From sequence record OR192075.1: 64,000 nucleotides of DNA. One strand, given 5' to 3'. Source of the stretch: Escherichia phage MIZ6. Made by a program: the position numbers and the translations under genes. This document shows, piece after piece, positions 1 through 31,672 of this stretch (the first letter of the stretch is position 1; each line of letters begins with the position of its first letter). The notes under the pieces are model-generated. The model was given only the letters and a program-made list of their open reading frames with translations. It was not told the DNA's origin and searched no databases.

Positions 1-121
1 CTTCGCTCATGAAAGAGCACTGTTTGCCTATGGTGTAGCGTACACGCTGTAATTTCAGTTTACGGAAGCCTTTAACGTTCAGGTCTTTAGCGATTTTCTT
101 TGCGGTTTCGATGTTAGCCAT
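1..121 (-). CDS. hypothetical protein, partial (C-terminus lies beyond window start)
   Basis: ATG at 121-119 behind AGGAGAATCAAACA RBS and promoter cassette; frame open to window edge. Confidence 0.5.
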   Translation of the reverse strand, partial: MANIETAKKIAKDLNVKGFRKLKLQRVRYTIGKQCSFMSE

Positions 122-161
122 TGTTTGATTCTCCTAAGTGGTATCTCGTCTTGATGGTTGT

Positions 162-191
162 ATTGTAGGGGATCTCCCGATCCCCTGTCAA
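162..191 (-). promoter_or_regulatory. sigma70-like early promoter (-35 TTGACA, -10 TACAAT) with GGGGATC-N4-GATCCCC palindrome in spacer
   Basis: hexamers read on minus strand, about 40 nt upstream of ATG at 121. Confidence 0.5.
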
Positions 192-205
192 CACTTTTTA
201 TAAAA

Positions 206-373
206 TTATTTGTTAATTTCTGGTGCGTTGCTCGGATAGTAACCTTCTTTAACACCAAGATATTTTGCAACCATTCCTACAATCTTCTGTGCTACTACAA
301 TGTCAAATTTCAGATAATCTTCGCCGTGGGTTTCAATGATATATGCTTCACATGCTGCTTTAGTCTCGAACAT
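206..373 (-). CDS. small hypothetical protein (55 aa), paralog of 4524..4691
   Basis: hand-translated ORF (MFETKAACEAYIIETHGEDYLKF...); RBS GGAGAATCAAA; below 60-aa track cutoff. Confidence 0.5.
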   Translation of the reverse strand: MFETKAACEAYIIETHGEDYLKFDIVVAQKIVGMVAKYLGVKEGYYPSNAPEINK

Positions 374-406
374 TTTGATTCTCCTATTTCGTTTCGTTAT
401 GTGTGT

Positions 407-435
407 ATTATAGGGGATCTCCCGATCCCCGTCAA
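407..435 (-). promoter_or_regulatory. sigma70-like early promoter (-35 TTGACG, 17-nt palindromic GATC spacer, -10 TATAAT)
   Basis: rc of attata at 407-412 and cgtcaa at 430-435. Confidence 0.5.
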
Positions 436-448
436 CAACTTTTTAAAA

Positions 449-922
449 TTATTTGCACCAAATTCGAATGATTTCGTCTCGTTCAAATTTTTGCCAGATT
501 ACTCGGTCGCCCGCTGCCATAATACTGACAAATCCAGTTATATTTCCGGTGTACTTGCTTTTAGTTTCTGCATCATATTCAAAGAATGGAGCTTTAAGAT
601 CGCTAAACTCATCTTTTCCCACAAACTTCATAACATGACGGTGTGCGTAATATTCGCTTCTTAGTGTTGTTGTGATAGTTCCGTCATCATTTGATTTCAG
701 ATGCAATTCGGCATCTTCATAAAGACTTGCATCTCGTTGTTTACTTTCGATACCATCATTATATGTTGATTTGGTTGCACTCCAACATTGATATGTCTTA
801 TCTACATTTTCGATCTTTTCCTGTGTCATGTCAAAAAGCGGCGCAACCTTTTTCTTAGCCGCGTGCGCAACGTTGGTCATAGACAGTGCCGCAACAACCG
901 CAATAGCAATAATTTTCTTCAT
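449..922 (-). CDS. secreted hypothetical protein with Sec signal peptide
   Basis: N-terminus MKKIIAIAVVAALSMTNVAHA|AKKK; RBS AGGAGATGA. Confidence 0.6.
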   Translation of the reverse strand: MKKIIAIAVVAALSMTNVAHAAKKKVAPLFDMTQEKIENVDKTYQCWSATKSTYNDGIESKQRDASLYEDAELHLKSNDDGTITTTLRSEYYAHRHVMKFVGKDEFSDLKAPFFEYDAETKSKYTGNITGFVSIMAAGDRVIWQKFERDEIIRIWCK

Positions 923-983
923 AATATCATCTCCTTTGGTTTATATGGCGGGAGTATCTTAGCAATACTCCCTTAATACTATA

Positions 984-1265
984 TTATTCGTGATTAGTTT
1001 CGATGTTGTGCATTTTGCACCAGTTCAGCCAATCGCCCAGATCTTGATAGTTGATGCTTTTATCTGCTGCCATCGTTTTTGTCTTGATACCCATATGTGC
1101 GTTATGAGTAAGCATTTTTACAGTGAACTCAATTTTATCGCCTTTAGCTTTAACATCAACCAGTTTGGTCCACTGGCTACCAGCGCCGCGAATGTTCATG
1201 CCAACGATGTTTCCGATGTATGCTTCTTTGTTTTTCAGGATTTCGGTTGCTTTGATGAATTTCAT
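984..1265 (-). CDS. hypothetical protein
   Basis: ORF behind promoter cassette and GGAGAATCAAA RBS. Confidence 0.55.
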   Translation of the reverse strand: MKFIKATEILKNKEAYIGNIVGMNIRGAGSQWTKLVDVKAKGDKIEFTVKMLTHNAHMGIKTKTMAADKSINYQDLGDWLNWCKMHNIETNHE

Positions 1266-1335
1266 TTTTGATTCTCCAGTTCGTTTCGGTATGGGTGTAT
1301 TATGCTATGTTCTTACTTTGGTGTCAACAACTTTT

Positions 1336-1605
1336 TTAGATATTTTCAGAAATAAATTTTAAAACTTGACGTAAATGTTTCTCATCTTTGATAGTCGCCG
1401 GAAGTTCTTCTTTTACTTCCTGTGCAAGATAGATATTTCCGTTCCAAGTGAAAGATCCGTCTTCGTTTACGCGATAGCTGAACATCCACTCGCAATCATT
1501 TTCGATTTCATATACACACAGAAGGGTGTAATCGTTAAAGCTATTGATTTCAAGGTCGAAGCCGTGACGTTTTGCAAAGTTGGTAGTGGTTTTAGTCAGT
1601 GCCAT
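1336..1605 (-). CDS. hypothetical protein
   Basis: ORF behind promoter cassette; same 5'UTR as gene ending at 121. Confidence 0.55.
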   Translation of the reverse strand: MALTKTTTNFAKRHGFDLEINSFNDYTLLCVYEIENDCEWMFSYRVNEDGSFTWNGNIYLAQEVKEELPATIKDEKHLRQVLKFISENI

Positions 1606-1695
1606 TGTTTGATTCTCCTAAGTGGTATCTCGTTTCGATGGGTGTATTATGCTATACACAGGATCTGGTGTCAACAACTTTTTTAAAAAATAGGC

Positions 1696-1722
1696 AATAA
1701 AAAAGCCGACACTATGGTCGGC
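1696..1722 (-). terminator. rho-independent terminator
   Basis: hairpin GCCGACACTATGGTCGGC followed by T-run on minus strand. Confidence 0.6.
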
Positions 1723-1727
1723 ACATT

Positions 1728-2045
1728 TTAAAAATTCTTGCTATATATGCAAGCCTCATAATCTAGAGGATGACCGCCAATCCTACCAGGCTTAATATTC
1801 CAACCGCATCGATATTTGCTGACCATGCTAACCGTTTCGGTTCTTAGAGCATTTCTTTGCAAATCATACCCCCTAAATTCTTGTCTATAAGGACAGTCCG
1901 CTTTGCAAGTTGGCGGTTCTACGTCATTTAGCGGGTCAGAAGCAGTTGGCTTTATTATCAATTCTTTGTTTGCAATAATCATAAGCACATCCCATTGAAG
2001 GCAATTTAACATCTTCGCAATAAGTGTTGAATCCGTCAAATACAA
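1728..2045 (-). CDS. hypothetical Cys-rich protein (start uncertain; TTG at 2045 or ATG at 2012/1982)
   Basis: ORF track; overlaps upstream gene. Confidence 0.35.
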   Translation of the reverse strand: MYLTDSTLIAKMLNCLQWDVLMIIANKELIIKPTASDPLNDVEPPTCKADCPYRQEFRGYDLQRNALRTETVSMVSKYRCGWNIKPGRIGGHPLDYEACIYSKNF

Positions 2046-2115
2046 TCACTTCGTATTTGACTCCATCGGCGATAGCTTTTACTTTATACCATCCATGCTT
2101 GTATAAAATCTTCAT
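1936..2115 (-). CDS. hypothetical protein (59 aa)
   Basis: ATG at 2115 with GAGGG RBS behind promoter cassette. Confidence 0.45.
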   Translation of the reverse strand: MKILYKHGWYKVKAIADGVKYEVIVFDGFNTYCEDVKLPSMGCAYDYCKQRIDNKANCF

Positions 2116-2200
2116 CTTTATTTCCCTCAATCTCGTTTCGATTGGTGTATTATGCTATAGGCGTGAACTGGTGTCAATGCCTTTTTTTAAAATTTTATGC

Positions 2201-2227
2201 AATAAAAAAGCCGACACTAAGGTCGGC
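2201..2227 (-). terminator. rho-independent terminator
   Basis: hairpin GCCGACACTAAGGTCGGC plus T-run on minus strand. Confidence 0.6.
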
Positions 2228-2235
2228 TAATAAAA

Positions 2236-2544
2236 TCATTTAGACAAATAATCATTCTGTGCAATCCGGTCGGCGTATGCTGGTGTTATGTCAATCGCCA
2301 GCACTTTAACGCGTGCTTTCTTGCGACCTGGGTTTTCTCGTAACCAGTGCTCATGACCGTGAACATTTTTATACTTTGATGCTGTTTCGAAAGTACGGAT
2401 CGGACCTGGGTAATCAGCGTAAAGGATCTCTAGATCTTCGGTGATGTAAAAATATACATCGTAATTGCTGTTCTCTAGCTTAAGCAGAGACTTTCGGAAC
2501 ATTGGGAGATTTTCGCGGGTAAATTCAAAGATATTATCTTTCAT
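2236..2544 (-). CDS. HxHW-family small protein (paralog 1 of 6)
   Basis: motifs YFYITEDLEI, HGHEHW, VLAIDI; RBS GAGGATAA. Confidence 0.6.
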   Translation of the reverse strand: MKDNIFEFTRENLPMFRKSLLKLENSNYDVYFYITEDLEILYADYPGPIRTFETASKYKNVHGHEHWLRENPGRKKARVKVLAIDITPAYADRIAQNDYLSK

Positions 2545-2565
2545 AGTATTATCCTCAATAGTTGG

Positions 2566-2589
2566 ATGAAAAGGGGCGTTAACGCCCCC
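2566..2589 (-). terminator. putative terminator hairpin
   Basis: GGGGCGTTAACGCCCC plus short T-run on minus strand. Confidence 0.45.
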
Positions 2590-2594
2590 ATATA

Positions 2595-2882
2595 TTAAAA
2601 CAGTCCTTCCTGTACACCGTAGTAGAGTTCGTCGCTGATAATTTCATTAATGCGACGGTGTGCATATTCCTGATTTGCGAAGTTGTCAGCAAGTTCTACT
2701 TTAGTTTCGCCGTCATGAGTCCATTTAGTGATAACTTTACCATCTGCAAATTTGAAGTTGAACTCTTTAGCTACTGCATCGCGTACCAGACGTGCAAACT
2801 TATTGTTGCGGATTGCATTGTCGGTTTCGTGTGCAGCGTGAGCAAATTTGTTAACTTTCAGAGTGATAGTGATGTATGCCAT
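2595..2882 (-). CDS. hypothetical protein, paralog family A (with 5887..6198)
   Basis: shared motif AIR..VR.A.AKEFN.K; promoter cassette upstream. Confidence 0.55.
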   Translation of the reverse strand: MAYITITLKVNKFAHAAHETDNAIRNNKFARLVRDAVAKEFNFKFADGKVITKWTHDGETKVELADNFANQEYAHRRINEIISDELYYGVQEGLF

Positions 2883-2963
2883 AATTTGATTCTCCTAGTT
2901 AGAAAGTGTATCTCGTTTCGATGGGTGTATTATGCTATACACCCGATCCGTTGTCAACACTTT

Positions 2964-3242
2964 TTATAAAATAATTTTTTGATATTTTTCTATGATGTTT
3001 GTGTAGGTCACATCAACCGCTAGCACCGTTGCTTCGAATCCACCGTTTAGCCAATGGCTATGGTCATGATCGTGAAAGAAACCAAGACCAGTACGAAGAC
3101 CTTCTTTATATTCGGCGCGTACATTTAGATCATCATCGATAAACAGATAAAACCATGAATTTTTACTAGGATTGATGATACAACCTTTCAGATTAGGGAG
3201 AATATCACGACTAAGAATAAACTTATCACCTACTTTTAGCAT
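2964..3242 (-). CDS. HxHW-family small protein (paralog 2)
   Basis: FYLFIDDDL, HDHDHSHW, VLAVDV; internal ATG at 3242 with RBS GTGAGGAAAA. Confidence 0.55.
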   Translation of the reverse strand: MLKVGDKFILSRDILPNLKGCIINPSKNSWFYLFIDDDLNVRAEYKEGLRTGLGFFHDHDHSHWLNGGFEATVLAVDVTYTNIIEKYQKIIL

Positions 3243-3256
3243 AATATTTTCCTCAC

Positions 3257-3565
3257 TTATAAAGTTTGACCGTTGTTTTTCGCGTAATGCTGAATGCGTG
3301 CTTGATCTGCTTCCGCTGGTGATAGATTCCATGCGATCACTACAACTTCTGACGCATCATGATCATTATCACTTACCCAATGATTATGATTCATACAATT
3401 GTTTGCTATCGCGTGAGAAAATGATCTCATTACCGGAGACGTATAATCATAGTAACGGATTTTCAGATTTTCATCAACGTACAAGTAGATCGTATACGGC
3501 TTATATTCAGTAACCAGTAACAGACAGTTACGCAATTCTGGGAAAATCTTTTTAGTTAATTTCAT
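3257..3565 (-). CDS. HxHW-family small protein (paralog 3, divergent)
   Basis: YLYVDENL, NHNHW, VVIAWN; ATG at 3565 with RBS GAGGATTATAAA. Confidence 0.5.
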   Translation of the reverse strand: MKLTKKIFPELRNCLLLVTEYKPYTIYLYVDENLKIRYYDYTSPVMRSFSHAIANNCMNHNHWVSDNDHDASEVVVIAWNLSPAEADQARIQHYAKNNGQTL

Positions 3566-3566
3566 T

Positions 3567-3797
3567 TTATAATCCTCGGTCGCGGCTATAGTACACGGTA
3601 CGCCATACAATTTCATGTTTCGTGTCGCTCCAGCACACGATCTCATTTACTCTTAAATCTTTGTTATCAACAAAAGATGAACATTGTGACGCTTCTTTCA
3701 TCATTTTATCTGCTGTTTTCTCATCAAATACAGCACAGATTTCTTTATACACTCGATAATCTTTGAATTGACTCTGGATACCCATAATTAACACCAT
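3567..3797 (-). CDS. hypothetical protein, paralog family B (with 3745..4008); start uncertain
   Basis: shared FK.YK.Y..I..V....F.EKMM..AS.C.SF motif. Confidence 0.45.
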   Translation of the reverse strand: MVLIMGIQSQFKDYRVYKEICAVFDEKTADKMMKEASQCSSFVDNKDLRVNEIVCWSDTKHEIVWRTVYYSRDRGL

Positions 3798-4008
3798 TCC
3801 AACCAATTGTTTTTGAGAAAACGTTTATCCACTGTTGAGTGTAGCATGTTTCTTTCCATGATACAATACGAGTAGAATAATGGTTTTTGTTTCCAGAAAA
3901 GGACGGGCATTTTGATGCATCTTCCATCATCTTTTCGGCGAACTCTGGTGCGTATACTCGCAGGATCTGTTGATATGCTTTGTATTCTTTAAATTTGCTC
4001 ATAATCAT
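3745..4008 (-). CDS. hypothetical protein, paralog family B
   Basis: ORF; similarity to 3567..3797 product. Confidence 0.5.
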   Translation of the reverse strand: MIMSKFKEYKAYQQILRVYAPEFAEKMMEDASKCPSFSGNKNHYSTRIVSWKETCYTQQWINVFSKTIGWNGVNYGYPESIQRLSSV

Positions 4009-4267
4009 TCACTACCTTATCAGCTTCTTTTGTTGTTTTTACATCAACTGCGATAACTCGTAAAGGTTCGTCATGGTTCCACCAGTGGTCATGAATATCA
4101 GCTTGTGATTTATCACCAAAGGAATCACGAATATCATTTTTACATTTATAGCTAATGTGACCTTCATAGTCAACATAAAGGTAATTATCGAAAATCGGCG
4201 TTTTTAAGATCATACCGAAAAATCTTTCTTTGTGTGTCTTATCCAGCGTTGCAGTAATTCGCATCAT
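3989..4267 (-). CDS. HxHW-family small protein (paralog 4)
   Basis: YLYVDYEGH, IHDHWW, VIAVDV; RBS AAGAGGAA. Confidence 0.55.
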   Translation of the reverse strand: MMRITATLDKTHKERFFGMILKTPIFDNYLYVDYEGHISYKCKNDIRDSFGDKSQADIHDHWWNHDEPLRVIAVDVKTTKEADKVVNDYEQI

Positions 4268-4279
4268 AATATATTCCTC

Positions 4280-4459
4280 TTAGAAAGGGATGGTCATTTC
4301 TTGAGCTTGTACGTTCTCGTTAGGATTAAACTTCATCCAGCCGATATTGTCTACCAGCATATGCACATTTTTATCATATCCTACGTGGGTAGTCAATACT
4401 GTATGTGCTTTACCTTCAATGATGAGTTCCATGTACTTCTGAACTTCGATAGCTTTCAT
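4280..4459 (-). CDS. small hypothetical protein (59 aa)
   Basis: hand-translated (MKAIEVQKYMELIIEGKAHTV...); promoter cassette and GGAGAATCAAA RBS; not in ORF track. Confidence 0.5.
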   Translation of the reverse strand: MKAIEVQKYMELIIEGKAHTVLTTHVGYDKNVHMLVDNIGWMKFNPNENVQAQEMTIPF

Positions 4460-4523
4460 TTTGATTCTCCGTTTGTTGTCTTGATGGGAGTATCTTACTA
4501 CTCCCTTTAATCATTGTCAACTA

Positions 4524-4691
4524 TTATTTGTTAATTTCTGGTGCGTTGCTCGGATAGTAACCTTCTTTAACACCAAGATATTTTGCAACCATTCCGGTGA
4601 TCTTCTGTGCTACTACGATATCGAATTTCAGGTAGTCTTCACCGTGGTTTGCTACAATGTATGCTTCGCATTCTGCTTTAGTCTGGAACAT
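4524..4691 (-). CDS. small hypothetical protein (55 aa), paralog of 206..373
   Basis: hand-translated (MFQTKAECEAYIVANHGEDYLKF...); about 90 percent identical to 206..373 product. Confidence 0.5.
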   Translation of the reverse strand: MFQTKAECEAYIVANHGEDYLKFDIVVAQKITGMVAKYLGVKEGYYPSNAPEINK

Positions 4692-4757
4692 TTTTGATTC
4701 TCCTATCTCGTTGGTATGTGTGCATTATAGGGGATCACCGATCCCCTGTCAACAACT

Positions 4758-5051
4758 TTATAATGCTTTATATGCGTATTTCATAAATTTGTCTGCCACT
4801 TCATTGGCATGTTCAGATTCTACGCCTGATTCGAGAACAATAGCTAGGTCGGTTTCGTCATTCCCGCCGTACCAATGATTTGATGTTCGATTTTTTTCAA
4901 TTGGAAATTGGTCACTTTTATCTGTGCGACAAAATACATCTAAATGCTCGTCGATGTAAAAGATCCAATCTTCATAAAGAATAACGGTATTAGCCAGATT
5001 TTTATTGCCTTCAACGAAAGGTTCGGCTACAAACAAATTAGTATGTTCCAT
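4758..5051 (-). CDS. HxHW-family small protein (paralog 5, degenerate: single His, NHW)
   Basis: FYIDEHLDV, NHWYGG, LAIVLE; ATG at 5051 with RBS GAGGAAAA. Confidence 0.5.
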   Translation of the reverse strand: MEHTNLFVAEPFVEGNKNLANTVILYEDWIFYIDEHLDVFCRTDKSDQFPIEKNRTSNHWYGGNDETDLAIVLESGVESEHANEVADKFMKYAYKAL

Positions 5052-5067
5052 AGTATTTTCCTCAAAA

Positions 5068-5259
5068 TTATACAGCTTCGTAAACTTCCCAATGTCCAAC
5101 ACCAGCACGCTTAACGAAAAGGTTTTCTTTTATGTTATTCATAAACGTCTGGATGGATTTAATGCGGTTTGAAGGTTTCCATTCTTCGTTGGTATTGCGT
5201 CGATACATCATAACATTACCAGTTCGCTTATATTCAGCAACCATTTTAAGACCACACAT
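5068..5259 (-). CDS. hypothetical protein
   Basis: ATG with RBS GAGGATAA. Confidence 0.5.
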   Translation of the reverse strand: MCGLKMVAEYKRTGNVMMYRRNTNEEWKPSNRIKSIQTFMNNIKENLFVKRAGVGHWEVYEAV

Positions 5260-5315
5260 AATATTATCCTCAATTTGTGGGAGAGTATTACCCTCCCGAT
5301 TATTGTTATACTACA

Positions 5316-5618
5316 TTACGCAAAATGGCGTGTCAATGCTTCTTTTGCTGTTCCGCTAAGATTCTCGATCTCTCCTGGCATAACATCAACCGCAAGAACT
5401 TCTACAACATCCTCTGATCCTAACCAGTGAGTATGACCTTTGTAGAACTTGATATCCCATTTATCGCTATCGCTAGCCCACCACACATCACCGTCGATAA
5501 AGTTGATGTAAAGCACACTACGCCACATTGAATTAATTACTTTCAATACTGCGCCTTTCATCTCTTCCACGGTGTGGTCTTCCATTTTGAAGACCTCACC
5601 TACCTGAACTTTTGCCAT
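5316..5618 (-). CDS. HxHW-family small protein (paralog 6)
   Basis: YINFIDGDV, GHTHW, VLAVDV; RBS GAGAGGTGA. Confidence 0.55.
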   Translation of the reverse strand: MAKVQVGEVFKMEDHTVEEMKGAVLKVINSMWRSVLYINFIDGDVWWASDSDKWDIKFYKGHTHWLGSEDVVEVLAVDVMPGEIENLSGTAKEALTRHFA

Positions 5619-5635
5619 TTAGTCACCTCTCTTTA

Positions 5636-5815
5636 TTACATAACAATCACGCCAGCCGTTGAAAGTTGATGTTTCAACTGAGCATTTTCTGCTACCGTCA
5701 AATCAATGATTTCTTGTGACGCTGCAATCATATAGCCATTGGTGATATTGTTTTGCATCAGTTCAATGGTTTCTTCGTTGTAGCGGATTTTAGCGATGAT
5801 TTCGTTGAAGTTCAT
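5636..5815 (-). CDS. small hypothetical protein (59 aa)
   Basis: internal ATG at 5815 directly behind GGAGAATCAATT RBS and promoter cassette. Confidence 0.5.
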   Translation of the reverse strand: MNFNEIIAKIRYNEETIELMQNNITNGYMIAASQEIIDLTVAENAQLKHQLSTAGVIVM

Positions 5816-5886
5816 AATTGATTCTCCTAGTTCGTTTCGGTATGTGTGTAGTATAGGGGATCGGTGATCCCCTGTCAACAACTTTT

Positions 5887-6198
5887 TTAAAGTTTTTCCA
5901 TGATAACGGTCATAATTACATCTTCTGCGCGAGCGGTCAGATTATCAGCGTCAGCATGTGGGCGGCTGGTTGTTACAGAGATAACACCGTTGCGCACTGG
6001 TTTGATGTTGATATCAAGATGATCCGCGAAACGTTCGCCAGTTACAGAATGAATTTTGGTGTTAAATTCTTTTGCCAGTGCCTTGCGAACTTCACGAATC
6101 AGGGTAGCGTTTTTCAGTTGGTTCTCCGCGCTCATGGTCTTCTGGGTGTTCATGGTTCCGTCGAAGTCAATCATTGGCAGCGTTACGATGTATTTCAT
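5887..6198 (-). CDS. hypothetical protein, paralog family A
   Basis: ATG at 6198 behind GGAGAATCAAAA RBS; similarity to 2595..2882. Confidence 0.55.
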   Translation of the reverse strand: MKYIVTLPMIDFDGTMNTQKTMSAENQLKNATLIREVRKALAKEFNTKIHSVTGERFADHLDINIKPVRNGVISVTTSRPHADADNLTARAEDVIMTVIMEKL

Positions 6199-6284
6199 TT
6201 TTGATTCTCCGTTTAAGAAAGTGTGTTTCGTTTTGATGTGTGTAGTATAGGGGATCACCGATCCCCTGTCAACAACTTTTTGAA

Positions 6285-6761
6285 TTATTTTTCTTGATGC
6301 TCGCGATCGTACTTTTCGAAATAAAATTCTACTGGCTGGTCGTGGATTGACAGCAAGCCAAAGCGTTTAGCCGCTCGCAATCCCATATTGCGCTGAATGT
6401 ACTTCTGGAAGTTCTCGCGTATACACTTACGCCAGTATTCTAAGCCCATACAGCTTTTATAAAGATTGCATTGCACACACGCCGGATTCATGTTATAAAG
6501 TATATCATGCTCCGGTTTATGCATTCCTACAACCTTATATTTCCATGATCCATCATCATTACGGGCAATTCGTCCATTTTCATCATAGACTACCTTTGAG
6601 CGTCGCAATACTGGTTTGATGTGGTCTGCGTGCCAGCGATCCCCTAGTTCCTCGCCACAATAGGCACAACGTCCACCATATTTCATTTTCAGGATCTGGC
6701 GTTGCTCTTTCTTTGACAATTTTTTAGGTTTAGGGGCTTTCGCCCCTTCATTATCACACAT
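6285..6761 (-). CDS. HNH endonuclease (putative homing endonuclease)
   Basis: CAYCGEEL...HADHIKP...CVQCNLYK HNH/zinc-finger motifs; start overlaps ligase stop. Confidence 0.7.
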   Translation of the reverse strand: MCDNEGAKAPKPKKLSKKEQRQILKMKYGGRCAYCGEELGDRWHADHIKPVLRRSKVVYDENGRIARNDDGSWKYKVVGMHKPEHDILYNMNPACVQCNLYKSCMGLEYWRKCIRENFQKYIQRNMGLRAAKRFGLLSIHDQPVEFYFEKYDREHQEK

Positions 6762-8250
6762 CGAATACCTCTTTTACTGTATTTGCAGTGGTCTTGTCGT
6801 AGCGAATACGTTTGATGATTGGGAGAAATAAAGAGAACTCCGGTTCATCTTCTTTACGTGATTTGCTGCGGATATACCCGTTGCATGTCATCTCAATAAC
6901 TTTTCCAATCAGGTTATGACGGTCAGCCCATAACATTTCTCGGTCGAGTTCATTTCGACGATCGAACGGAATTACACGTTCAGTACCATCATCACCTTTT
7001 TCGGTTGTAGTGTCGGTTAATCCCGATCCGGTGTTAGTCATCATTCGTCCGCACGCACTACGGACAGTAAAACCGCCTACCTTATTGGGGTCTTTACTAT
7101 GCGGATATACATCAACAATTTCCGCGTCGAAGTCAATCACTTCTTTAAATTTAACCTGATCTTTACTACGGCGATCTTCAAATACACCATGTAAATTTTT
7201 AAGGATAATACCTTCTAAGCCCATGTTGACATAACGATGATATACTTCGCGAGCTTCATCGATATTGTTAACTACAGTGTTTTCGATGATCTGAACACGA
7301 GGATCGTTAAGTTCTTCAACAATCTGTTTTAGTTCTTCGAATCGATCTTTATATTGCTTCGTTGCTTTCTCGTTTCCGTAATACACATCACGGTCGATAA
7401 CATCCCAGACAGTGTAAACAATACATTGGGCTTCTTCTTTTGGAATAGTTCCTTTAAGTGATTTGTTGAGGATACCATTTCCGGTCTGACGATCTGCAAC
7501 AACGGATTCTTTCACTGCTTCCGCTACTGGCGTTAATGGCATTTCCTCTTCTTCAAATATCCATGACAGAGTACCATCATAAACGCTTTCAACGAAGTTC
7601 TGCGCTGGTGTTTGCGAAAGGGTAGGCATATATACCAATTCGCCATCTAGAACAATTCCACGGCCTCGTAGACGCTCTAAAACCGCAAACAAATCATCAA
7701 GCCCTTGATAGGTATTACCTGAGCGGGTATAGATTGCTAATGTTTCCCCGTCAATATCAGCCATACCACGAGCGCCATCGCTTTTAAGTTGTGCATACGC
7801 CGGATACTTGATATTAGCAATAGTCTTATCAGAACATGACGATGCAAGGTGGCACGGCTGCTGGGGGATCAGTTTCTTCCATACCTTGTTTGCAGTAGTA
7901 GCGGAACAACCACATTCCAGATCACGATTCAGGACCATCATTGCAACTTTAGCATCATCTTCTGACAAGCAAGTCAGAGTATCGGTAACTAGCTGTAATG
8001 CTGCATTACCAGTTACTTGACGCGTGGCAAGTTTATTTTTAAAGACCTGTAATGCACCGGATAAAGACAATACAGACGAATAGCGAGACGGTTTATCGTA
8101 TTTCTTTACGCCAAACGTAACCTGTTTGCAATATGCCAGATAAAAGCATTCTTTCAGCGTTTCATTGCTCGCGGATTCTTTCAGAATCTTTTCTTTCAGC
8201 GATGTTTTGTCTGTTGCTGCAAGCTGATTAATGATATTAAGAATTGACAT
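6754..8250 (-). CDS. 30: ATP-dependent DNA ligase (T4 gp30-like)
   Basis: KxDG adenylation motif (QLKSDGARG); T4 gp30-like length and C-terminus; ATG at 8250 with RBS GAGGTGAAA. Confidence 0.9.
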   Translation of the reverse strand: MSILNIINQLAATDKTSLKEKILKESASNETLKECFYLAYCKQVTFGVKKYDKPSRYSSVLSLSGALQVFKNKLATRQVTGNAALQLVTDTLTCLSEDDAKVAMMVLNRDLECGCSATTANKVWKKLIPQQPCHLASSCSDKTIANIKYPAYAQLKSDGARGMADIDGETLAIYTRSGNTYQGLDDLFAVLERLRGRGIVLDGELVYMPTLSQTPAQNFVESVYDGTLSWIFEEEEMPLTPVAEAVKESVVADRQTGNGILNKSLKGTIPKEEAQCIVYTVWDVIDRDVYYGNEKATKQYKDRFEELKQIVEELNDPRVQIIENTVVNNIDEAREVYHRYVNMGLEGIILKNLHGVFEDRRSKDQVKFKEVIDFDAEIVDVYPHSKDPNKVGGFTVRSACGRMMTNTGSGLTDTTTEKGDDGTERVIPFDRRNELDREMLWADRHNLIGKVIEMTCNGYIRSKSRKEDEPEFSLFLPIIKRIRYDKTTANTVKEVFDV

Positions 8251-8716
8251 TTTCACCTCGTTTTGTTAAACGTTCACGAATATCATTGAGGATACTACAA
8301 AATTCCGATTCAGTCAATATAGTCTTTAACGGATCAGTTCCACCTATGCTATGACGTAATTTCTTATTTCCGGTAGAGAGTAATGCTTTACAAAATTCTG
8401 GGTTATTCCGTGCCATCGTAACAAATGCCAGATGTACCAGTCTGTAATAATGCTCACTCATTCGATGAATCGGGCGACCCTGAAAATATAACATGTGATT
8501 CTCAATCTTTTCAGTTCTTCCGGTTCTTTTTGCTTTGCCACCGTGCATCAAAAAGATTTCTCTTTGTCTCTGAGGGTTCTTAAATCTTAGCCCCTGTAAA
8601 AATCCTTCTGTGCTGTTAATATCGCAACCAAATAGACGGAATGGTCTTTTATTGAAATTACTCAATTCACCCGATGGATAAGGTCCACCCGCATAGATAT
8701 CAATTTCAGAAGTCAT
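8237..8716 (-). CDS. NADAR (YbiA/DUF1768-like) domain protein
   Basis: GELSNF ... FLQGLRF ... SEHYY motifs resembling E. coli YbiA. Confidence 0.6.
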   Translation of the reverse strand: MTSEIDIYAGGPYPSGELSNFNKRPFRLFGCDINSTEGFLQGLRFKNPQRQREIFLMHGGKAKRTGRTEKIENHMLYFQGRPIHRMSEHYYRLVHLAFVTMARNNPEFCKALLSTGNKKLRHSIGGTDPLKTILTESEFCSILNDIRERLTKRGENVNS

Positions 8717-8870
8717 TGAAACTAATCTCGCTAATCAGAGAGAACGGATCATAATCGTCATTAGGAATATCGATAGTAATCGAATGAGGGTTTACCCATA
8801 CACCAAACTGGTCTTCTTCGGTGAATACTTCGGTATGGATTTCGTGGATGTTTACATTCATAGTTTTCAT
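8706..8870 (-). CDS. small hypothetical protein (54 aa)
   Basis: hand-translated; RBS AAGGAAAT; stop overlaps NADAR start. Confidence 0.45.
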   Translation of the reverse strand: MKTMNVNIHEIHTEVFTEEDQFGVWVNPHSITIDIPNDDYDPFSLISEISFNDF

Positions 8871-8910
8871 AATAAAATTTCCTTAATAATCAATAACTTA
8901 CAAAATCATA

Positions 8911-8942
8911 TAGCCAAAATATAGGCGGGATTATTTCCCGCC
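8911..8942 (-). terminator. putative terminator
   Basis: hairpin GGCGGGATTATTTCCCGCC then T-rich tract on minus strand. Confidence 0.45.
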
Positions 8943-8953
8943 GTTTAAAATCA

Positions 8954-9277
8954 TTAACCGTAAACTACCACAATATTCTGTTTGTGCGTTACAGTCCATT
9001 TCAGGTCGATCTCTTCTTCCTTCTTAACGCCGTTAATAACGTCTGGATGAGGAACTTTATTCATCTTGCCATGTGGCAGTAAAACAGTTTTACCCAGCAA
9101 TTCTTTATCTACCGTTTCACCGATATCAATAATCTTACCTACCAGCGGAATCTCGCCCATAGTGCGCTTTTGCTCAATAATGATCCCCATAGAGCTTTTT
9201 ACTTCTGTCCCTGCGCTTTCTGCTTTAGCTTCAATAATCACATAGTCACCAAGTGCTTTAGGAGTTTTAACGGTCAT
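8954..9277 (-). CDS. 31: co-chaperonin GroES-like (T4 gp31-like)
   Basis: about 107 aa, GroES-like pattern; synteny between cd and 30; RBS AAGAGGTAA. Confidence 0.7.
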   Translation of the reverse strand: MTVKTPKALGDYVIIEAKAESAGTEVKSSMGIIIEQKRTMGEIPLVGKIIDIGETVDKELLGKTVLLPHGKMNKVPHPDVINGVKKEEEIDLKWTVTHKQNIVVVYG

Positions 9278-9318
9278 AATTTTATTACCTCTTCAAATCA
9301 ATACAGTTTAATGATGAA

Positions 9319-9633
9319 TTATTTATAAATTTCGACGATCTGCGCTGGAGTCAGCCCGTCTACATTAATCAGACTATCAAGCCCAAAACTACGGAAACCT
9401 TCAACTGCAATTTCATATACTGGCAAAGATGTTTCTGATTCTTTACGCGGTTTTTCAACATTAGGAACTAACCACTTTTCGTATGTTTCGAAAGGCATCA
9501 GTGCCGGATCTCGCGTGGCGATCATCTCACGGACAGTACCATCTTTCTTAGTAAACTGCAAAGAGTGAGTACCGACCGAAAACATTTTCTTTAGTGCTTC
9601 ACGAAGTGCGATATTATCAACTTGTTCAGTCAT
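9319..9633 (-). CDS. hypothetical protein
   Basis: ORF; ATG at 9633. Confidence 0.5.
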   Translation of the reverse strand: MTEQVDNIALREALKKMFSVGTHSLQFTKKDGTVREMIATRDPALMPFETYEKWLVPNVEKPRKESETSLPVYEIAVEGFRSFGLDSLINVDGLTPAQIVEIYK

Positions 9634-10132
9634 TATCAATACCCTTCAAATCAGTCAATAATGCTTTTGGAATACGCGTGATCGTAATATCTGCATTATT
9701 CAGAATATCAGCCCAATCACGCCCACCATTTCGATCATATGTGTCGCAATAGTATAGATGTTTAATTCCACTGTTTGCAATTGCTTTAGCGCAATCTGGA
9801 CACGGTGAAGCAGTACACCACATACTAGCGCCTTCAATCGATACACCGCTACGTGCAGCAAACAAAATAGCATTTAATTCAGCGTGGATTTCGTTTTTCT
9901 GTGACCATGCGCTATGTTCTGGTCGTTTTTCTGGGATCATTTTGCCGTCATCATCCAGCCAACCGTTTTTATGTGCATGACAGCTACAATTTACTTGCCC
10001 TGCTGGAGTTCCGTTAAATCCAGTAGAAATGATTCGCCCGTCTTTTTCAATTAGTGCGCCTACCTTCCACGAAACGCATTTAGAGTTCTTTGCGATTAGA
10101 TAGGCGATCTGCATGTAAGTTTGTGACAACAT
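9626..10132 (-). CDS. cd: dCMP deaminase
   Basis: HAELNAI and PCPDCA zinc-binding motifs; aligns to T4 Cd N-terminus (QIAYL...SKC.SWKVGA.IEK.GRIISTG.NG.PAG). Confidence 0.9.
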   Translation of the reverse strand: MLSQTYMQIAYLIAKNSKCVSWKVGALIEKDGRIISTGFNGTPAGQVNCSCHAHKNGWLDDDGKMIPEKRPEHSAWSQKNEIHAELNAILFAARSGVSIEGASMWCTASPCPDCAKAIANSGIKHLYYCDTYDRNGGRDWADILNNADITITRIPKALLTDLKGIDND

Positions 10133-10158
10133 AATATAATCCTCACATCACATATTAA

Positions 10159-10362
10159 TTAACCGTATACGCGAAAGTATTCTACTGATCCGTCGCTATA
10201 CTGTTTTACATTGAATGTATTCACACCATGATTATTTCTCATGATGACATATACACTGCGACGTTCATCGCTAAACGGCATAACTGGCGCTGGTTCAATA
10301 TCAACACTAAAACCACGTTTAGCAAGTGCTTCGCCTAATTGCTTGAGTTTATCGGTAAACAT
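10159..10362 (-). CDS. hypothetical protein
   Basis: ORF; ATG overlaps pseT stop. Confidence 0.5.
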   Translation of the reverse strand: MFTDKLKQLGEALAKRGFSVDIEPAPVMPFSDERRSVYVIMRNNHGVNTFNVKQYSDGSVEYFRVYG

Positions 10363-11240
10363 TAAAAGTCTCCGTAGTTAACCTGAAAACATTCTACACC
10401 AATTGAGCGGTACATGTCAACCACTTGATCACGGTCATCTACTGCCAACACAACATGATAACGCGGTGCAATTTCAGAGAAGAAAATCTCTTTCTTCACT
10501 TCATGATCAGGACGACGATCATTAGTTTCACGTTGAAAATGATCGCTAGGTTCAATACCCTGTTCACGCAGCCATTGCAGAGTATCTTCTTCGCAAACAT
10601 CCTCACGCCCTGAGCATGTAATGATACGATAACCATTATCACGATACAGTTTAAGCATTTCGATCACTTGCGGACGCGGTTTATCTTCTTTGACCTTTGT
10701 CCAGTCAAACGGATGACGACCGCCCTTATCCGCTAATGTTCCATCAATATCAAAGATCACTGCCTTCGGCAGCATGGTATTCGGTTTGTATACTTCTTGA
10801 CCCATATATTCCTGCATCAGATAAAATTGGTTGCGCAAATTAGAAAGTGGAATTGCTTTCTCGCCGCGATAGAAATTACGTTTCTTTAGTGTCTCAAATG
10901 ATTCATTGAACACTTGTTCAGTATACACCGCGTTAAATTCTTTTGCAAGTTCTTTGTAGAATACACGATGTTTTTCTTTCAGGTTGGTATCGGAGATAAT
11001 GATACTCAATCCGCGTGATAGAGTCTCACGAGCAATCATTCTCTGAATAGACTCTACCAGCTTTTCTTTTTCCTTAGTATACTTGTATTTCAAATGTGAG
11101 TCAACACCAAACAACATAAGACGAAGATCATCACGATTCACATTACGATAATTACTAAACCGTTTACACGTTTCCATAGCCCATGTAGTTTTACCGGACC
11201 CAGAACAACCAACGGTTAAAATCACTTCACATTTCGGCAT
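10362..11240 (-). CDS. pseT: polynucleotide 5'-kinase/3'-phosphatase
   Basis: P-loop GCSGSGKTTWA near N-terminus; HAD motif DIDGTL; T4 Pnk-like length; ATG at 11240 with RBS AAGGAGAAATA. Confidence 0.9.
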   Translation of the reverse strand: MPKCEVILTVGCSGSGKTTWAMETCKRFSNYRNVNRDDLRLMLFGVDSHLKYKYTKEKEKLVESIQRMIARETLSRGLSIIISDTNLKEKHRVFYKELAKEFNAVYTEQVFNESFETLKKRNFYRGEKAIPLSNLRNQFYLMQEYMGQEVYKPNTMLPKAVIFDIDGTLADKGGRHPFDWTKVKEDKPRPQVIEMLKLYRDNGYRIITCSGREDVCEEDTLQWLREQGIEPSDHFQRETNDRRPDHEVKKEIFFSEIAPRYHVVLAVDDRDQVVDMYRSIGVECFQVNYGDF

Positions 11241-25345: not shown

Positions 25346-26293
25346 TTAGAACTCACCAATTTTCTGCAACATTTTAACTAACGCATTTGTTACAAAATAG
25401 TTATAAATTTTACCGCGTGGTGCTGGTTTAGATTTTTCCCATGCTAACAAAATTTCATATTCGATGTTATCGGGAATAAATTCAAAATCAATAAGTTCGC
25501 GGTTTTCGTCAAAGCGTCGTGCTTCTTCCTCTGTCATCAAAGACTTTGGATCTTCGGCATCGAAAATTTGCTCTAACCATTTGGTTGCAATTGGTTTAGC
25601 TCGTTCCCCTTCCAGTCGTGAGATAATGAAATCGCTACGGCACTTGATAGAAGCTACACCGTCTTTTGCGTCACCCTTAACACATTTTACCATAAGGTCT
25701 TTGTAAGGGCTACCGTATTTGCATTTCTTCCATGCTTTCTGTACTGGTGCCCACTGTTTCACGTTTTTGTATTTGTGCAACTGTGTGTAGTCACCATCGC
25801 CGGAGTTGATTAGCACCTGGCGACCTTCTACAGAAAACTTTTTAGTTAATACAGCGATTATATCATCCGCTTCAACTTTGTCAACCTTAATAACGTGATA
25901 AGGCATGTTCTCTTTAAACTCTTCGGTGATCTTATTGATCGCAGCAAAGATCATCTCCCAATCACGCGGATCTGCGTCTCGTTTTTCCTTACGGTTGCGT
26001 TTATAGTAAGGGGCGATATCACGTCGCCAGTAACCTTTACTTGAATCAAAGGCAAGTACCGTAATTGGGTATTGCTCTTTGAATTTTGTCATATTATAAC
26101 GCATGGTGTCAAGGATAAGATGACGGATCATGCCTTCATTAATAGGATCTTCCGGTTTAAAGGTATGCGAGATAGTAGCAATCATAAGCTGCGACATATC
26201 AATCAAATGCACACCTTCCGGCAGTTTATCTTCTGGATCATCGAAGAAATCATTAAGTGTAGCGGTAGTTTTTGTAAACGGGTTATACGTCAT
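25346..26293 (-). CDS. rnh: RNase H / 5'-3' flap exonuclease (T4 Rnh-like)
   Basis: near-colinear match to T4 RNase H (MIRHLILD, GYWRRD, KVDKVEADDIIAVL, DGDYTQLHKY.NVKQW, RGKIYNYF). Confidence 0.93.
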   Translation of the reverse strand: MTYNPFTKTTATLNDFFDDPEDKLPEGVHLIDMSQLMIATISHTFKPEDPINEGMIRHLILDTMRYNMTKFKEQYPITVLAFDSSKGYWRRDIAPYYKRNRKEKRDADPRDWEMIFAAINKITEEFKENMPYHVIKVDKVEADDIIAVLTKKFSVEGRQVLINSGDGDYTQLHKYKNVKQWAPVQKAWKKCKYGSPYKDLMVKCVKGDAKDGVASIKCRSDFIISRLEGERAKPIATKWLEQIFDAEDPKSLMTEEEARRFDENRELIDFEFIPDNIEYEILLAWEKSKPAPRGKIYNYFVTNALVKMLQKIGEF

Positions 26294-26295
26294 AA

Positions 26296-26481
26296 TTAAG
26301 TTCTCTCCACTCTCACAACAACATATTCACCAAACGAGTTAGATACTTCACGGTCATACCCGTACTTTTCCATAACTCGCAGAATTGCATTGTTTAATTC
26401 GGCACGGAAATAATTATAATCCTTATCAGGGATTCTGTCAACTACCCATTTTGCACCTTCTGACAAATCAACTTTAACCAT
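26296..26481 (-). CDS. hypothetical protein
   Basis: ORF with RBS AAGAGGATGA. Confidence 0.5.
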   Translation of the reverse strand: MVKVDLSEGAKWVVDRIPDKDYNYFRAELNNAILRVMEKYGYDREVSNSFGEYVVVRVERT

Positions 26482-26519
26482 AATATATCATCCTCTTTTG
26501 TTTCTATCAAGCCTTATTT

Positions 26520-26527
26520 TATAAATA
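26520..26527 (+). promoter_or_regulatory. T4-type late promoter -10 element TATAAATA upstream of gene 34
   Basis: exact TATAAATA about 28 nt upstream of ATG 26556. Confidence 0.5.
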
Positions 26528-26555
26528 TGAACATACTATAAAAGGAGACCCAATA

Positions 26556-29500: not shown

Positions 29501-30296
29501 AGCGCAAGTTGTTGATAGTGATGCTATCGCTTTCGGTCAAATCAATGATGGTGGAGTCGTCGAGCATTACGCCTTTGCTGTGGAACACAATGGCGACGCG
29601 ACAGCATATAGAGACTTTATTGCAGGTCGTAACCTGTATGCGAAACAAGGCGGTTTATACATTGTTGACCAGTCTAATCCGGCAATGACTCGTTCCCCAG
29701 ATGGTATGCTGAATATCGGTCACGGTGGAAGTGTTAACATCAAGGCAGGTCATCAAACGTTAACTACCGAGATCGCCGGACAGAAATATCAGATCGTACA
29801 CGCAGGAAACGCTGACGAAGTTCTTAACCGTCAGTTTGTTAAGAATGCTGGCGATACAATGGTCGGCAAGCTGACTATGGATAATGCGCCTATTGTTTCT
29901 GTTAAGCATGAAGCTAGCGCGGCAACCGCTCCGGCAATCGGCAACATCGGTTTCTGGAATATGCGAGTTACTACCCAGAACATCAAAGAAACTTATCCAG
30001 AGAAGAAAAACGGTACTCTGATGCAATGGGGTACTGACGCGGACGGGCTTACCCAGCTTTGGTCCCCTGATGGTACTCATAAACATTATATCCGTTCCGG
30101 TACTGGTGGTCAATGGACCGCATGGGGTGAAATTTACACCAAACAGAATAAGCCTACCGCTCAGGAAATCGGGGCAGTAGTTGCAGAAGGTGGTTTAATG
30201 AACTCTATGACGGTTCGTGATTGGATCAAAGTTGGTAATGTTAAAATCATCGCCAATAATCTGACTCGTACCGTAGACTTTATCTGGGAAGACTAA
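26556..30296 (+). CDS. 34: long tail fibre proximal subunit (T4 gp34-like)
   Basis: 1246 aa; N-terminus and repeated ATQ/ITPKKL motifs match T4 gp34. Confidence 0.9.
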   Translation: MADFSQHFKATFGFDAGNEKVVNVAYADKNTSTDAVNVEFFNYHNGITQYDTTRGYDQYGTTIYQNRPYYAKEDITKPAGDFDPTKWQALRTDPRWDYIAATSGDTPLKSGDYIAADGQFANLTFSMPTKPAEGDTITVKDIGGKCGVNELSFLSSGHEFYHNGNVYNRKWYCTTPYAMNYFIFVRNRWHVYQTGTEPRGVYAQPAIDAIQMQNGDQVFRRSSLGNITLVLPKFANNGDMIQTTDLDGLTATNHVTVKVHEHAEEQSIGTSGLKEIIGKRSGHGVFIFDKTENLWRLWDGDQSVRLKPIIDDTRLQPNSYVAVFGDRDVTLTLPTNVEPGDRIQVSMQYMHGNQNCRIITPTEDTKILMQKNMVQFPKRSEYPFNGTDTWKEVSELSFNAASDYVPYLEFSYSEGDDGKKHWLVAHSHPIVERVDPTRKERVGVIALATQDETNKNHEDNPSDEVAVTPKVLANKTANETRRGIARIATQAETHQDTGSNFLDDVIVTPKKLNDCVATEARRGVMEIATQHETNEGLDDTRAITPKKLEERRASEDLAGIAEIVQVGGSAAARRGEAGTGIYNINDHAKIVTPKNINEVKATETSRGVGYLATDAEVQGATESTPQDALLITTRTLTKRTATESRTGIAEIATQEETNLGQSDNHIITPKKLHTRRATETLHGLAEIATQPEFDAGLDDARISTPLKIKTFFENAQRLKVDPTQGLNLTGDLWQGIMISGLDATEDTKGVAKVATTQLTDAGQDDTTIITPKKLQGKKATEGKEGIIRVGTQAETVAGTLANVAISPKNFKYVVQTEDTWKATEARRGFLKVATQENCFVGDNLQGSTQELGNYQHDGIAVTPKGLNYALANFLPKMATAQNSLKLGNVEAAKWARRDIDQTIESNYTFNKNVNVKGDLGCLKSGSFETLSVTKNSTDVPSNGHLVLGKRGVDGHTGITLHGTTASEGMKNSWSIIVGGTGTAQVVDSDAIAFGQINDGGVVEHYAFAVEHNGDATAYRDFIAGRNLYAKQGGLYIVDQSNPAMTRSPDGMLNIGHGGSVNIKAGHQTLTTEIAGQKYQIVHAGNADEVLNRQFVKNAGDTMVGKLTMDNAPIVSVKHEASAATAPAIGNIGFWNMRVTTQNIKETYPEKKNGTLMQWGTDADGLTQLWSPDGTHKHYIRSGTGGQWTAWGEIYTKQNKPTAQEIGAVVAEGGLMNSMTVRDWIKVGNVKIIANNLTRTVDFIWED

Positions 30297-30301
30297 TTAA
30301 A

Positions 30302-30317
30302 GGGGGCGAAAGCCCCC
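30302..30317 (+). other. intergenic stem-loop between genes 34 and 35 (no T-tract)
   Basis: GGGGGCGAAAGCCCCC palindrome immediately before RBS of gene 35. Confidence 0.4.
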
Positions 30318-30329
30318 TATGGGGTTATT

Positions 30330-31469: not shown

Positions 31470-31481
31470 CATTTTTAACAA

Positions 31482-31510
31482 GCCGATCCATGTGGTCGGC
31501 TTTATTTTTA
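31482..31510 (+). terminator. rho-independent terminator after gene 35
   Basis: hairpin GCCGATCCATGTGGTCGGC followed by TTTATTTTTA. Confidence 0.65.
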
Positions 31511-31515
31511 TACAG

Positions 31516-31639: not shown

Positions 31640-31672
31640 CTCGGAACTATAACTAATTTTTGAGGTTACTTT

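Follow-up and report, generated by a model that had tools for sequence, protein, structure and literature searches.

The hyperplastic regions of T4-type phages hold most of the unexplored genes of these viruses, and how such genes multiply and move is only partly understood. We addressed this question in the first 6 kb of a 64,000-nucleotide (nt) stretch of Escherichia phage MIZ6 (sequence record OR192075.1; hereafter the window), where a preliminary description had noticed two pairs of similar small genes interleaved with a larger HxHW family and had ascribed most of the region to local gene duplication. The window derives from a Krischvirus (an RB49-like T4-type coliphage), and its bases 1–6300 constitute the hyperplastic region downstream of the DNA ligase gene gp30. 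On the RB49 map, the first pair corresponds to ORF198 and ORF210 (pair A, of family A) and the second to ORF201 and ORF202 (pair B, of family B); all four open reading frames (ORFs) lie on the minus strand and, as a comparison with related genomes confirmed, coincide with annotated coding sequences of phage MIZ2 and with RB49 ORFs (Table 1). Both families are small, phage-restricted early-gene families encoded between gp30/HNH and alt. In our view, pair B probably represents tandem duplicates and pair A an ancient, cassette-borne split, with the early genes of both pairs driven by PeSLs—strong sigma-70 early promoters combined with a stem-loop terminator that were defined in the RB49-type hyperplastic region (Arbiol et al. 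2010, PMC2839356).

ORF201 and ORF202 are adjacent paralogs

BLASTP aligned the two pair B proteins at 25/63 identities (40%; E 8e-17), and their Smith-Waterman score of 132 exceeds the values of shuffled controls (mean 24, maximum 54; z about 24), with none of 20,000 shuffles reaching it. Both proteins also match phrog_8471 (E 2.4e-33 for ORF201 and 3.4e-36 for ORF202), and their paralogy, as first proposed from a shared motif, is certain. The motif itself needs correction, as its elements 'YK' and 'F-x-EKMM' hold for ORF202 only, ORF201 having YR and TADKMM.

The two ORFs overlap by 41–53 nt in different frames, and phages phi1 and JSE lack an equivalent of the ORF202 3′ tail, which could be taken to mean that one ORF is spurious and the paralogy a reading-frame artefact of a single gene. 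This reading is barely credible, and we consider it refuted: the similarity runs between ORF202 residues 1–64 and ORF201 residues 2–65, stretches whose coding DNA does not overlap; phi1 has two separate genes, arranged head to tail with a 2-nt spacer; and of the 56 Krischvirus records with the family, most retain both. Relative to phi1, the ratio of nonsynonymous to synonymous substitution rates (dN/dS) is 0.15 for ORF201 and 0.14 for ORF202, arguing that both genes are real and under purifying selection.

The overlap itself is accounted for by a 5-nt insertion (GGTTG on the minus strand). In phi1, ORF202 ends with ...LEWC* at 69 amino acids (aa), and the versions of phi1, JSE, and KMB43 all end in this way at 69–71 aa. 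In the window and in RB49, the insertion shifts ORF202 beyond the ancestral TAA stop and extends it by about 17 unrelated codons across the ORF201 start. Both length forms are common, since 15 of 34 listed Krischvirus rows match all 87 residues and the other 19 only residues 1–70/71. The junction also bears on the start of ORF201, which had been placed at 3797—as in the MIZ2 annotation. The ATG at 3797 is absent from phi1, JSE, and KMB43; the conserved start is the ATG at 3785, where an alignment with the same three phages revealed a conserved TTAATTATG.

Pair B copy number and alleles vary among relatives. JSE and KMB43 lack ORF201 and thus possess one copy, their ORF202 abutting the ORF200 homolog at the same TTAATTATG junction. 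Compared with phi1, ORF202 of the window is 88% identical and ORF201 only 62% (synonymous divergence, dS, 1.8). ORF201 alleles are deeply diverged and partly mosaic, as in P0014, which joins a phi1-type N-terminal half to a window-type C-terminal half. Proteins of the ORF201 type and the ORF202 type are 38–52% identical to each other, and either type shares 25–38% with the single-copy homolog of a metagenomic Krischvirus-like contig (L009; ENA ERZ27235406 k119_4708). Judged from these identities, a duplication within the Krischvirus lineage would fit. The genes are adjacent, on the same strand, significantly similar, and both under purifying selection, as is characteristic of tandem duplicates. 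While adjacency and homology are observed directly, the event behind them would have been the copying in tandem of a single operon gene of ~70 codons, followed by divergence to about 40% identity. The 5-nt insertion in this lineage then brought the end of ORF202 into its overlap with ORF201.

ORF198 and ORF210 are real but distant paralogs

Pair A posed a harder problem, as neither BLASTP nor tblastn matched its members to each other. Since full Smith-Waterman alignment and profile methods do detect the match, this miss most likely reflects a failure of heuristic seeding, for want of a second seed word, and is not evidence against homology. The Smith-Waterman score of the pair was 57 against a shuffle mean of 26 (z 6.3–6.8) and was reached by 6 of 20,000 shuffles; like pair B, pair A therefore does not align at the level of shuffled controls. 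The corresponding Gumbel P was 1.2e-4, or an E of about 0.03 when corrected for all 190 ORF pairs of the region. Direct similarity alone, in a local alignment of just 24–27 residues, is marginal.

Independent evidence makes the case solid. In tblastn searches, a protein of the Gaprivervirus phage SP18, SP18gp146, was matched by both ORF198 (45% identity, E 3e-7) and ORF210 (32%, E 2e-5). When groups were compared by hhalign, the ORF198 group aligned to the SP18 group over 88 columns (98.3%, E 2e-14) and the ORF210 group over 70 columns (95.5%, E 1.6e-8), with 27 columns between ORF198 and ORF210 directly (82%, E 1e-5). The SP18 protein is an intermediate, resembling ORF210 at its N-terminus and ORF198 at its C-terminus; identities amount to 43% for ORF198/SP18, 33% for ORF210/SP18, and 27–28% for ORF198/ORF210. 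Furthermore, ORF198 and ORF210 match phrog_7474 end to end (E 4.8e-43 and 7.3e-43), and an AlphaFold model of ORF198 could be superposed on the structure that BFVD provides for RB49 ORF210 (template modelling scores, TM, 0.68/0.60; probability 0.98). The SP18gp146 bridge, phrog_7474, and the agreement of independently made models thus bear out the proposed paralogy.

The silence of BLASTP and tblastn, the short direct alignment, and the modest corrected E value are also what one would expect had two unrelated genes come to resemble each other by chance or convergence around the short AKEFN motif. Such a resemblance would hardly extend to a common match in SP18gp146 over 70–88 columns, to similar lengths and a multiple alignment that is colinear throughout, or to the same fold in the BFVD model, and only 6 of 20,000 shuffles attain the score. 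We regard this reading as very improbable and largely refuted. As for the motif from which the pair had been recognised, VR-x-A-x-AKEFN-x-K is in register between the two proteins, but the preceding 'A-x-IR' pairs non-homologous positions.

A related leader suggests a possible common cassette origin of pair A

Published work on RB49 and phi1 had described PeSL cassettes built of the same elements in the same region (PMC2839356; Comeau et al. 2014, PMC4122927), and ORF210 of the window is the ortholog of their ORFan210. ORFan192 and ORFan210 are excised as PeSL mini-circles, those of ORFan210 having been detected by inverse polymerase chain reaction in RB49 and phi1, and mini-circles were proposed as vectors of horizontal transfer (PMC2839356). 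A promoter scan of the window uncovered nine minus-strand promoters in 6.3 kb (at 6272, 5878, 4752, 2957, 2177, 1674, 1327, 435, and 191), each with an 11–12/12 match to TTGACA-17/18-TATAAT. They align as one repeated element consisting of an AT-rich tract, the –35 box, a spacer, the –10 box, a ACACCCATCGAAACGAGAT leader, AGGAGAATCAAA, and the ATG, and five of the nine contain GGGGATC-N3/4-GATCCCC in the spacer.

ORF210 is a single-gene unit between two stem-loop PeSLs whose repeats are spaced 394 nt apart (5842 to 6236). Both flanking PeSLs have 8-bp stems (fold –13.2 kcal/mol) and the published layout of AT-rich tract, –35 box, GGGG..CCCC stem-loop, –10 box, and Shine-Dalgarno sequence; in the upstream one, the AT-rich tract is followed by TTGACA, a GGGGATC-GGT-GATCCCC stem-loop in the spacer, TATACT, the leader, and GGAGAATCAAAA ahead of the ATG. 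Phage ELT3 lacks ORF210, and its deletion matches the 394-bp PeSL-to-PeSL unit: one chimeric PeSL joins HNH to ORF209, beginning behind the HNH 3′ end with the AT-rich part of the upstream PeSL and continuing with the downstream PeSL's loop (ACC) and –10 box. A single chimeric PeSL of this kind is exactly the product described by Arbiol et al. (PMC2839356). ORF210 thus still behaves as a PeSL cassette. Across about 59 Krischvirus records it is present in 43, with ORF198 found at 95% identity or more in 56.

The leaders of the two pair A genes are related. Among the nine aligned PeSLs, only those of ORF198 and ORF210 have ACACTTTCT(T)AA inserted downstream of the –10 region and ahead of the Shine-Dalgarno sequence, and the exact leader pattern is found at just two sites in the window (Table 1). 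This shared motif is suggestive, though not conclusive, evidence that ORF198 and ORF210 are not two wholly independent acquisitions. Given the shared leader, and with the homology of the proteins established, both genes may descend from one ancestral leader-plus-gene cassette. Their copies would most likely have been separated by PeSL-to-PeSL recombination, that is, by excision of a mini-circle and its re-integration at another PeSL.

Phylogeny speaks to the age of the split. In a neighbour-joining tree of family A (midpoint-rooted, about 100 columns), ORF210 is the outgroup to ORF198, its L009 ortholog (76% identity), and the Gaprivervirus group. Based on this position, the split would be ancient, predating the spread of 198-type genes between genera, and would not be a recent local duplication; it may represent either an ancient duplication or a separate acquisition of cassettes. 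In SP18, the homolog sits in a different plastic region, between tRNA genes and e.6. There (GQ981382, 5925–6000), a GGGGGTATACAAGCCCCC stem-loop, a –10-like box (CATAAT), and GGAGAATAAAATG lie ahead of it, a PeSL-like arrangement in another genus and another plastic region. L009 encodes a single 198-type gene in its ligase–alt region, with its lone family B gene directly after.

We also weighed the possibility that ORF198 and ORF210 belong to a broader family of mobile ORFans and had already diverged when they were acquired, each separately, by integration of a PeSL cassette. Several of the above facts would agree with it: the branching of ORF210 outside both ORF198 and the homologs of another genus, its patchy presence relative to ORF198, the different location of the Gaprivervirus gene, the occurrence of only a 198-type gene in L009, and the proposed role of mini-circles in horizontal transfer (PMC2839356). 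No outside donor pool is visible, however, as the family is tiny—4–6 clusters in 1.8–5.8 billion proteins, all from Krischvirus/Gaprivervirus-type phages—and tblastn found no ORF210-type gene outside Krischvirus. The leader motif, absent from the other seven aligned PeSLs, likewise argues for a common cassette ancestor. On balance, we consider separate acquisition unlikely and favor an ancient, cassette-borne split for pair A alongside a tandem duplication for pair B.

A number of observations weigh against this explanation. The direct similarity of pair A is weak (27% identity, E about 0.03 after correction), its homology is transitive through one intermediate group with shallow alignments (effective number of sequences 1–2), and phrog_7474 is not independent, its profile probably having been built from orthologs of both genes. 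The leader motif comprises only 11–12 nt, and versions with one mismatch are no rarer than chance. Midpoint rooting on about 100 columns could be misled, in that faster evolution of ORF210 might mimic an outgroup position. ORF198 is at most a putative mobile cassette, given that the PeSL ahead of it no longer has a stem-loop and that no PeSL follows it. As no genome was found with ORF210 at another PeSL, re-integration is inferred rather than observed. For pair B, the tree does not resolve the placement of the L009 homolog.

The pair genes belong to predicted PeSL-headed transcription units

The arrangement of promoters divides the region into transcription units comprising ORF210 alone, ORF209-208-207-206, ORF205-204-203-202-201-200-199, and ORF198-197 (closed by a terminator at 2228–2209), with further units downstream. 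Pair B occupies the middle of the seven-gene operon ORF205–199; after its consensus promoter at 4752, the scan found the next strong promoter only at 2957. There, upstream of ORF198, a near-consensus promoter is combined with a degenerate spacer stem-loop (fold –5.7 kcal/mol, z –1.0). The hairpin between ORF198 and ORF197, in contrast, folds at –13.3 kcal/mol (z –3.0; matched by 0/200 shuffles) but stands alone, without a promoter, and is likely an attenuator that closes the ORF198 unit. All genes would be transcribed leftward from near-consensus sigma-70 PeSL promoters, as judged from the consensus matches in the window and from the reporter assays of other PeSLs by Arbiol et al.

We also noted intrinsic terminators at 2209–2228 and 1705–1722 (GCCGAC-N6-GTCGGC followed by TTTTTT). 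They belong to a repeat (1679–1722 / 2184–2227; 86% identity over 44 nt), and each is located just upstream of a PeSL promoter, so that modules of terminator plus promoter are likewise repeated as units.

Predicted folds suggest a possible protein-binding role for family A

AlphaFold (AF2) modelling predicted a β-α-β-β-α arrangement for ORF198 (predicted local distance difference test score 81.5; predicted TM score 0.75) and a small helical protein for ORF201 (89.5). The family A prediction is alike to the fold of DinI (PDB 1GHH/7YWA; PF06183), a β-α-β-β-α protein of about 80 residues. DinI binds RecA filaments via an acidic C-terminal helix and modulates the SOS response; the C-terminal helix of family A, as read from the sequences, contains 5–6 acidic residues in each subgroup. 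The likeness is one of predicted fold, as there is no detectable sequence relationship and DinI has 81 aa compared to 95–103 aa in family A. PF06183 matched none of seven family A members at E<=10, hhalign against E. coli DinI returned a probability of 0.35%, and a HMMER profile search over 1.84 billion representatives retrieved only family A itself. Likewise, no entry labelled DinI came up when BFVD was searched with the family A model, only family A and two unnamed 87-aa proteins, and sequence searches of Pfam, PADLOC, and PDB (which yielded no DinI) contained no credible match for any of the four pair A and B proteins. We thus speak of a predicted DinI-like fold, with membership of the DinI family not shown.

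Tautomerase/MIF folds score almost as high as DinI for family A. The hallmark of these enzymes is a catalytic N-terminal proline (Pro1) on a β-α-β unit, and family A lacks Pro1. The family A proteins are probably not enzymes and would instead bind a protein of the host or the phage; a DinI-like binding role is a low-probability lead. One could imagine that family A proteins are DinI-like filament modulators carried on self-excising PeSL cassettes, that ORF198 and ORF210 target different recombinase filaments (e.g., RecA of the host and UvsX of the phage) or block host defences that are triggered by RecA/SOS, and that their paralogy stems from mini-circle re-integration. We hold this combination to be a long shot; if true, pair A would be the first concrete case of PeSL mini-circle re-integration creating a new gene copy. 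In L009, the 77-aa gene that follows HNH resembled DinI on visual inspection and was dropped as a candidate, given that Pfam returned no match, BLASTP did not align it to DinI, and its hhalign probability against family A was 0.27%.

For family B, the ORF201 model found no fold match; the family is predicted to form four-helix mini-proteins and lacks recognisable relatives. That its function depends on a metal or on Cys is unlikely, the Cys of its AS-x-C-x-SF motif being replaced in phi1 ORF201 and in P0013. Among 5.8 billion proteins, family A forms six clusters and family B nine.

RB49 ORF210 (NC_005066, 6392–6721) has 18 nt duplicated in tandem and in frame (ERFADH-ERFADH), unlike the window and most relatives; the duplication maps to a loop of the model between the first helix and the second strand.

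Duplication, cassette exchange, and allele replacement together shape the region

To what extent is the region a product of duplication? An all-against-all comparison of the 20 ORFs in 1–6200 sorted 12 of them into four families—ORF191/205; HxHW (ORF197, 199, 200, 203, and 208, plus 206); ORF198/210; and ORF201/202—that together take up about 51% of the bases (some 3.15 of 6.2 kb). Paralogs range from 89% DNA identity down to about 25% protein identity. With the repeated PeSL cassettes added, the claim that the first 6 kb are largely duplicated is roughly right. A repeat search over 1–6400 recovered the PeSLs, the ORF191/205 copy, and the terminator repeats on the DNA level but no nucleotide similarity within pair A or within pair B.

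ORF191 and ORF205, the duplicated 55-aa gene, are 89% identical over 172 nt (205–376 vs 4523–4694; z 52), and each lies directly behind a stem-loop PeSL (375–461 and 4692–4778). By far the youngest duplication of the region, it looks like a copy of the whole PeSL-plus-gene cassette. As to the HxHW genes, ORF206 joins the family only via two L009 proteins, both of which match it (z 22–26): one also matches ORF200, 203, 208, and 197 (z 5–11), and the other ORF199 (z 6). None of the HxHW members has a Pfam or PADLOC match. A segmental duplication of a family A gene together with an HxHW gene (198-197 vs 210-209-208) is not supported, as the closest paralog of ORF197 is ORF200 and not ORF208.

Identities to phi1 change abruptly between neighboring genes: 98% for ORF198 and ORF199, 89% for ORF200, 62% for ORF201, 88% for ORF202, 54% for ORF203, and 92% for ORF204 on the protein level, with dS saturated for ORF201 and ORF203. 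This mosaic indicates gene-sized allele replacement inside one operon, at boundaries that have no PeSLs. Old and new duplication, gain and loss of cassettes, and allele replacement have therefore acted together. Local duplication, the process named in the preliminary description, applies to the adjacent tandem genes of pair B and the recent ORF191/205 cassette copy but not to pair A, whose members are 3.3 kb apart and about 27% identical with ORF210 outside the ORF198 clade; nor does it cover PeSL insertion and excision (ELT3) or the replaced alleles of ORF201 and ORF203.

Table 1 Coordinates of the gene pairs, their PeSLs, and neighboring features in the window
Feature	Position	Strand	Remarks
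Family A copy 1, RB49 ORF198 homolog, 95 aa	2595..2882	-	first gene behind 2957-2929 promoter
Family A copy 2, RB49 ORF210 homolog, 103 aa	5887..6198	-	sole gene of 394-bp PeSL-to-PeSL cassette
Family B copy, RB49 ORF201 homolog, 72 aa	3567..3785	-	from conserved ATG at 3785; 3567..3797 from the upstream ATG
Family B copy, RB49 ORF202 homolog, 87 aa	3745..4008	-	last ~17 codons: frameshift-derived tail
5-nt insertion	3800..3804	-	GGTTG on minus strand; relative to phi1, JSE, KMB43 (DNA alignment)
PeSL upstream of ORF210	6199..6298	-	promoter 11/12 at 6272-6244, TTGACA-17-TATACT
PeSL downstream of ORF210, upstream of ORF209	5816..5886	-	promoter 11/12 at 5878-5850; second boundary of ORF210 cassette
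PeSL-type early promoter and leader upstream of ORF198	2883..2983	-	11/12 at 2957-2929, TTGACA-17-CATAAT
PeSL heading operon ORF205-204-203-202-201-200-199	4692..4778	-	12/12 consensus promoter at 4752-4724
Leader motif ACACTTTCTAAC	2898..2909	-	between -10 box and Shine-Dalgarno sequence of ORF198
Leader motif ACACTTTCTTAA	6213..6224	-	equivalent position upstream of ORF210
Stem-loop GGGGCG-TTAA-CGCCCC, then TTTT	2577..2592	-	between ORF198 and ORF197
HxHW family	2236-2544, 2964-3242, 3257-3565, 3989-4267, 4758-5051, 5316-5618	-	five PHROGs: 9345, 17255, 15972, 15965, 16486
HNH endonuclease	6285-6761	-	
DNA ligase gp30	6754-8256	-	

Relation to published work

Earlier publications already cover the region, its PeSLs, and ORF210 mobility, and the groupings exist in PHROGs, where phrog_7474 and phrog_8471 unite pairs A and B under the label 'unknown function' and with nothing on within-genome paralogy, mechanism, or fold. 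The PeSL papers (PMC2839356, PMC4122927) discuss insertion, deletion, and replacement and treat the genes as unrelated ORFans; 'duplicat-' and 'paralog' do not occur in them in the sense of gene paralogy, and neither they nor a five-genome comparison (Nolan et al. 2006, PMC1524935) mention the ORF198/210 and ORF201/202 paralogies. The link between ORF210, a mini-circle cassette, and a distant paralog with a related leader appears to be new but incremental, as do the frameshift origin of the ORF202/201 overlap and the fold predictions.

Pair B is reminiscent of the paralogs known from plastic regions of T4-like phages, such as alt / alt.-1 / alt.-2 or motB and RB69ORF010c (PMC1524935). These are likewise adjacent, same-strand, strongly diverged early non-essential genes that reflect the same kind of event. 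They differ in having known functions, whereas pair B belongs to an ORFan family confined to Krischvirus-like phages.

Current understanding is not altered by these results, since the region behaves as the literature predicts and is an ordinary feature of a known region type. What the locus offers is three ages of duplication in one 6-kb stretch—the seemingly ancient pair A, the presumably tandem pair B, and the recent ORF191/205 cassette copy—and support for the idea that PeSL recombination makes paralogs besides shuffling genes. In addition, families A and B provide two small, defined candidates for host-takeover or anti-defence screens, the former with a confident DinI-like predicted fold and the latter with a confident model without a known fold match.

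Genomic surroundings

Bases 1–8300 of the window are 99.8% identical to Escherichia phage MIZ2 and 92–97% identical to RB49, phi1, JSE, and about 55 other Krischvirus records. Every gene in this interval is on the minus strand, and below 6285 there is a run of 20 small ORFs annotated as 'hypothetical'. The HNH endonuclease and DNA ligase genes share 8 nt, at the 3′ end of the latter. The interval from HNH to ORF210 varies among relatives: RB49 has an additional ORF211 between HNH and the PeSL upstream of ORF210, described as a homolog of a Vibrio superintegron ORF (Arbiol et al., PMC2839356), and several other phages diverge from the window near this point.

Contig L009 also carries the ligase-HNH...alt region (5110–10950), with another gene order: 193-like, 206-like, 206-like, 198-like, B-like, 194-like, and 209-like genes, plus four unmatched small ORFs. 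Elsewhere in the window, at about 26–36 kb (26000–36000), GC skew and AT skew flip sign and GC content rises to 0.46 at 28–30 kb; these shifts point to a possible block of genes on the plus strand, the rest of the window being minus-strand.

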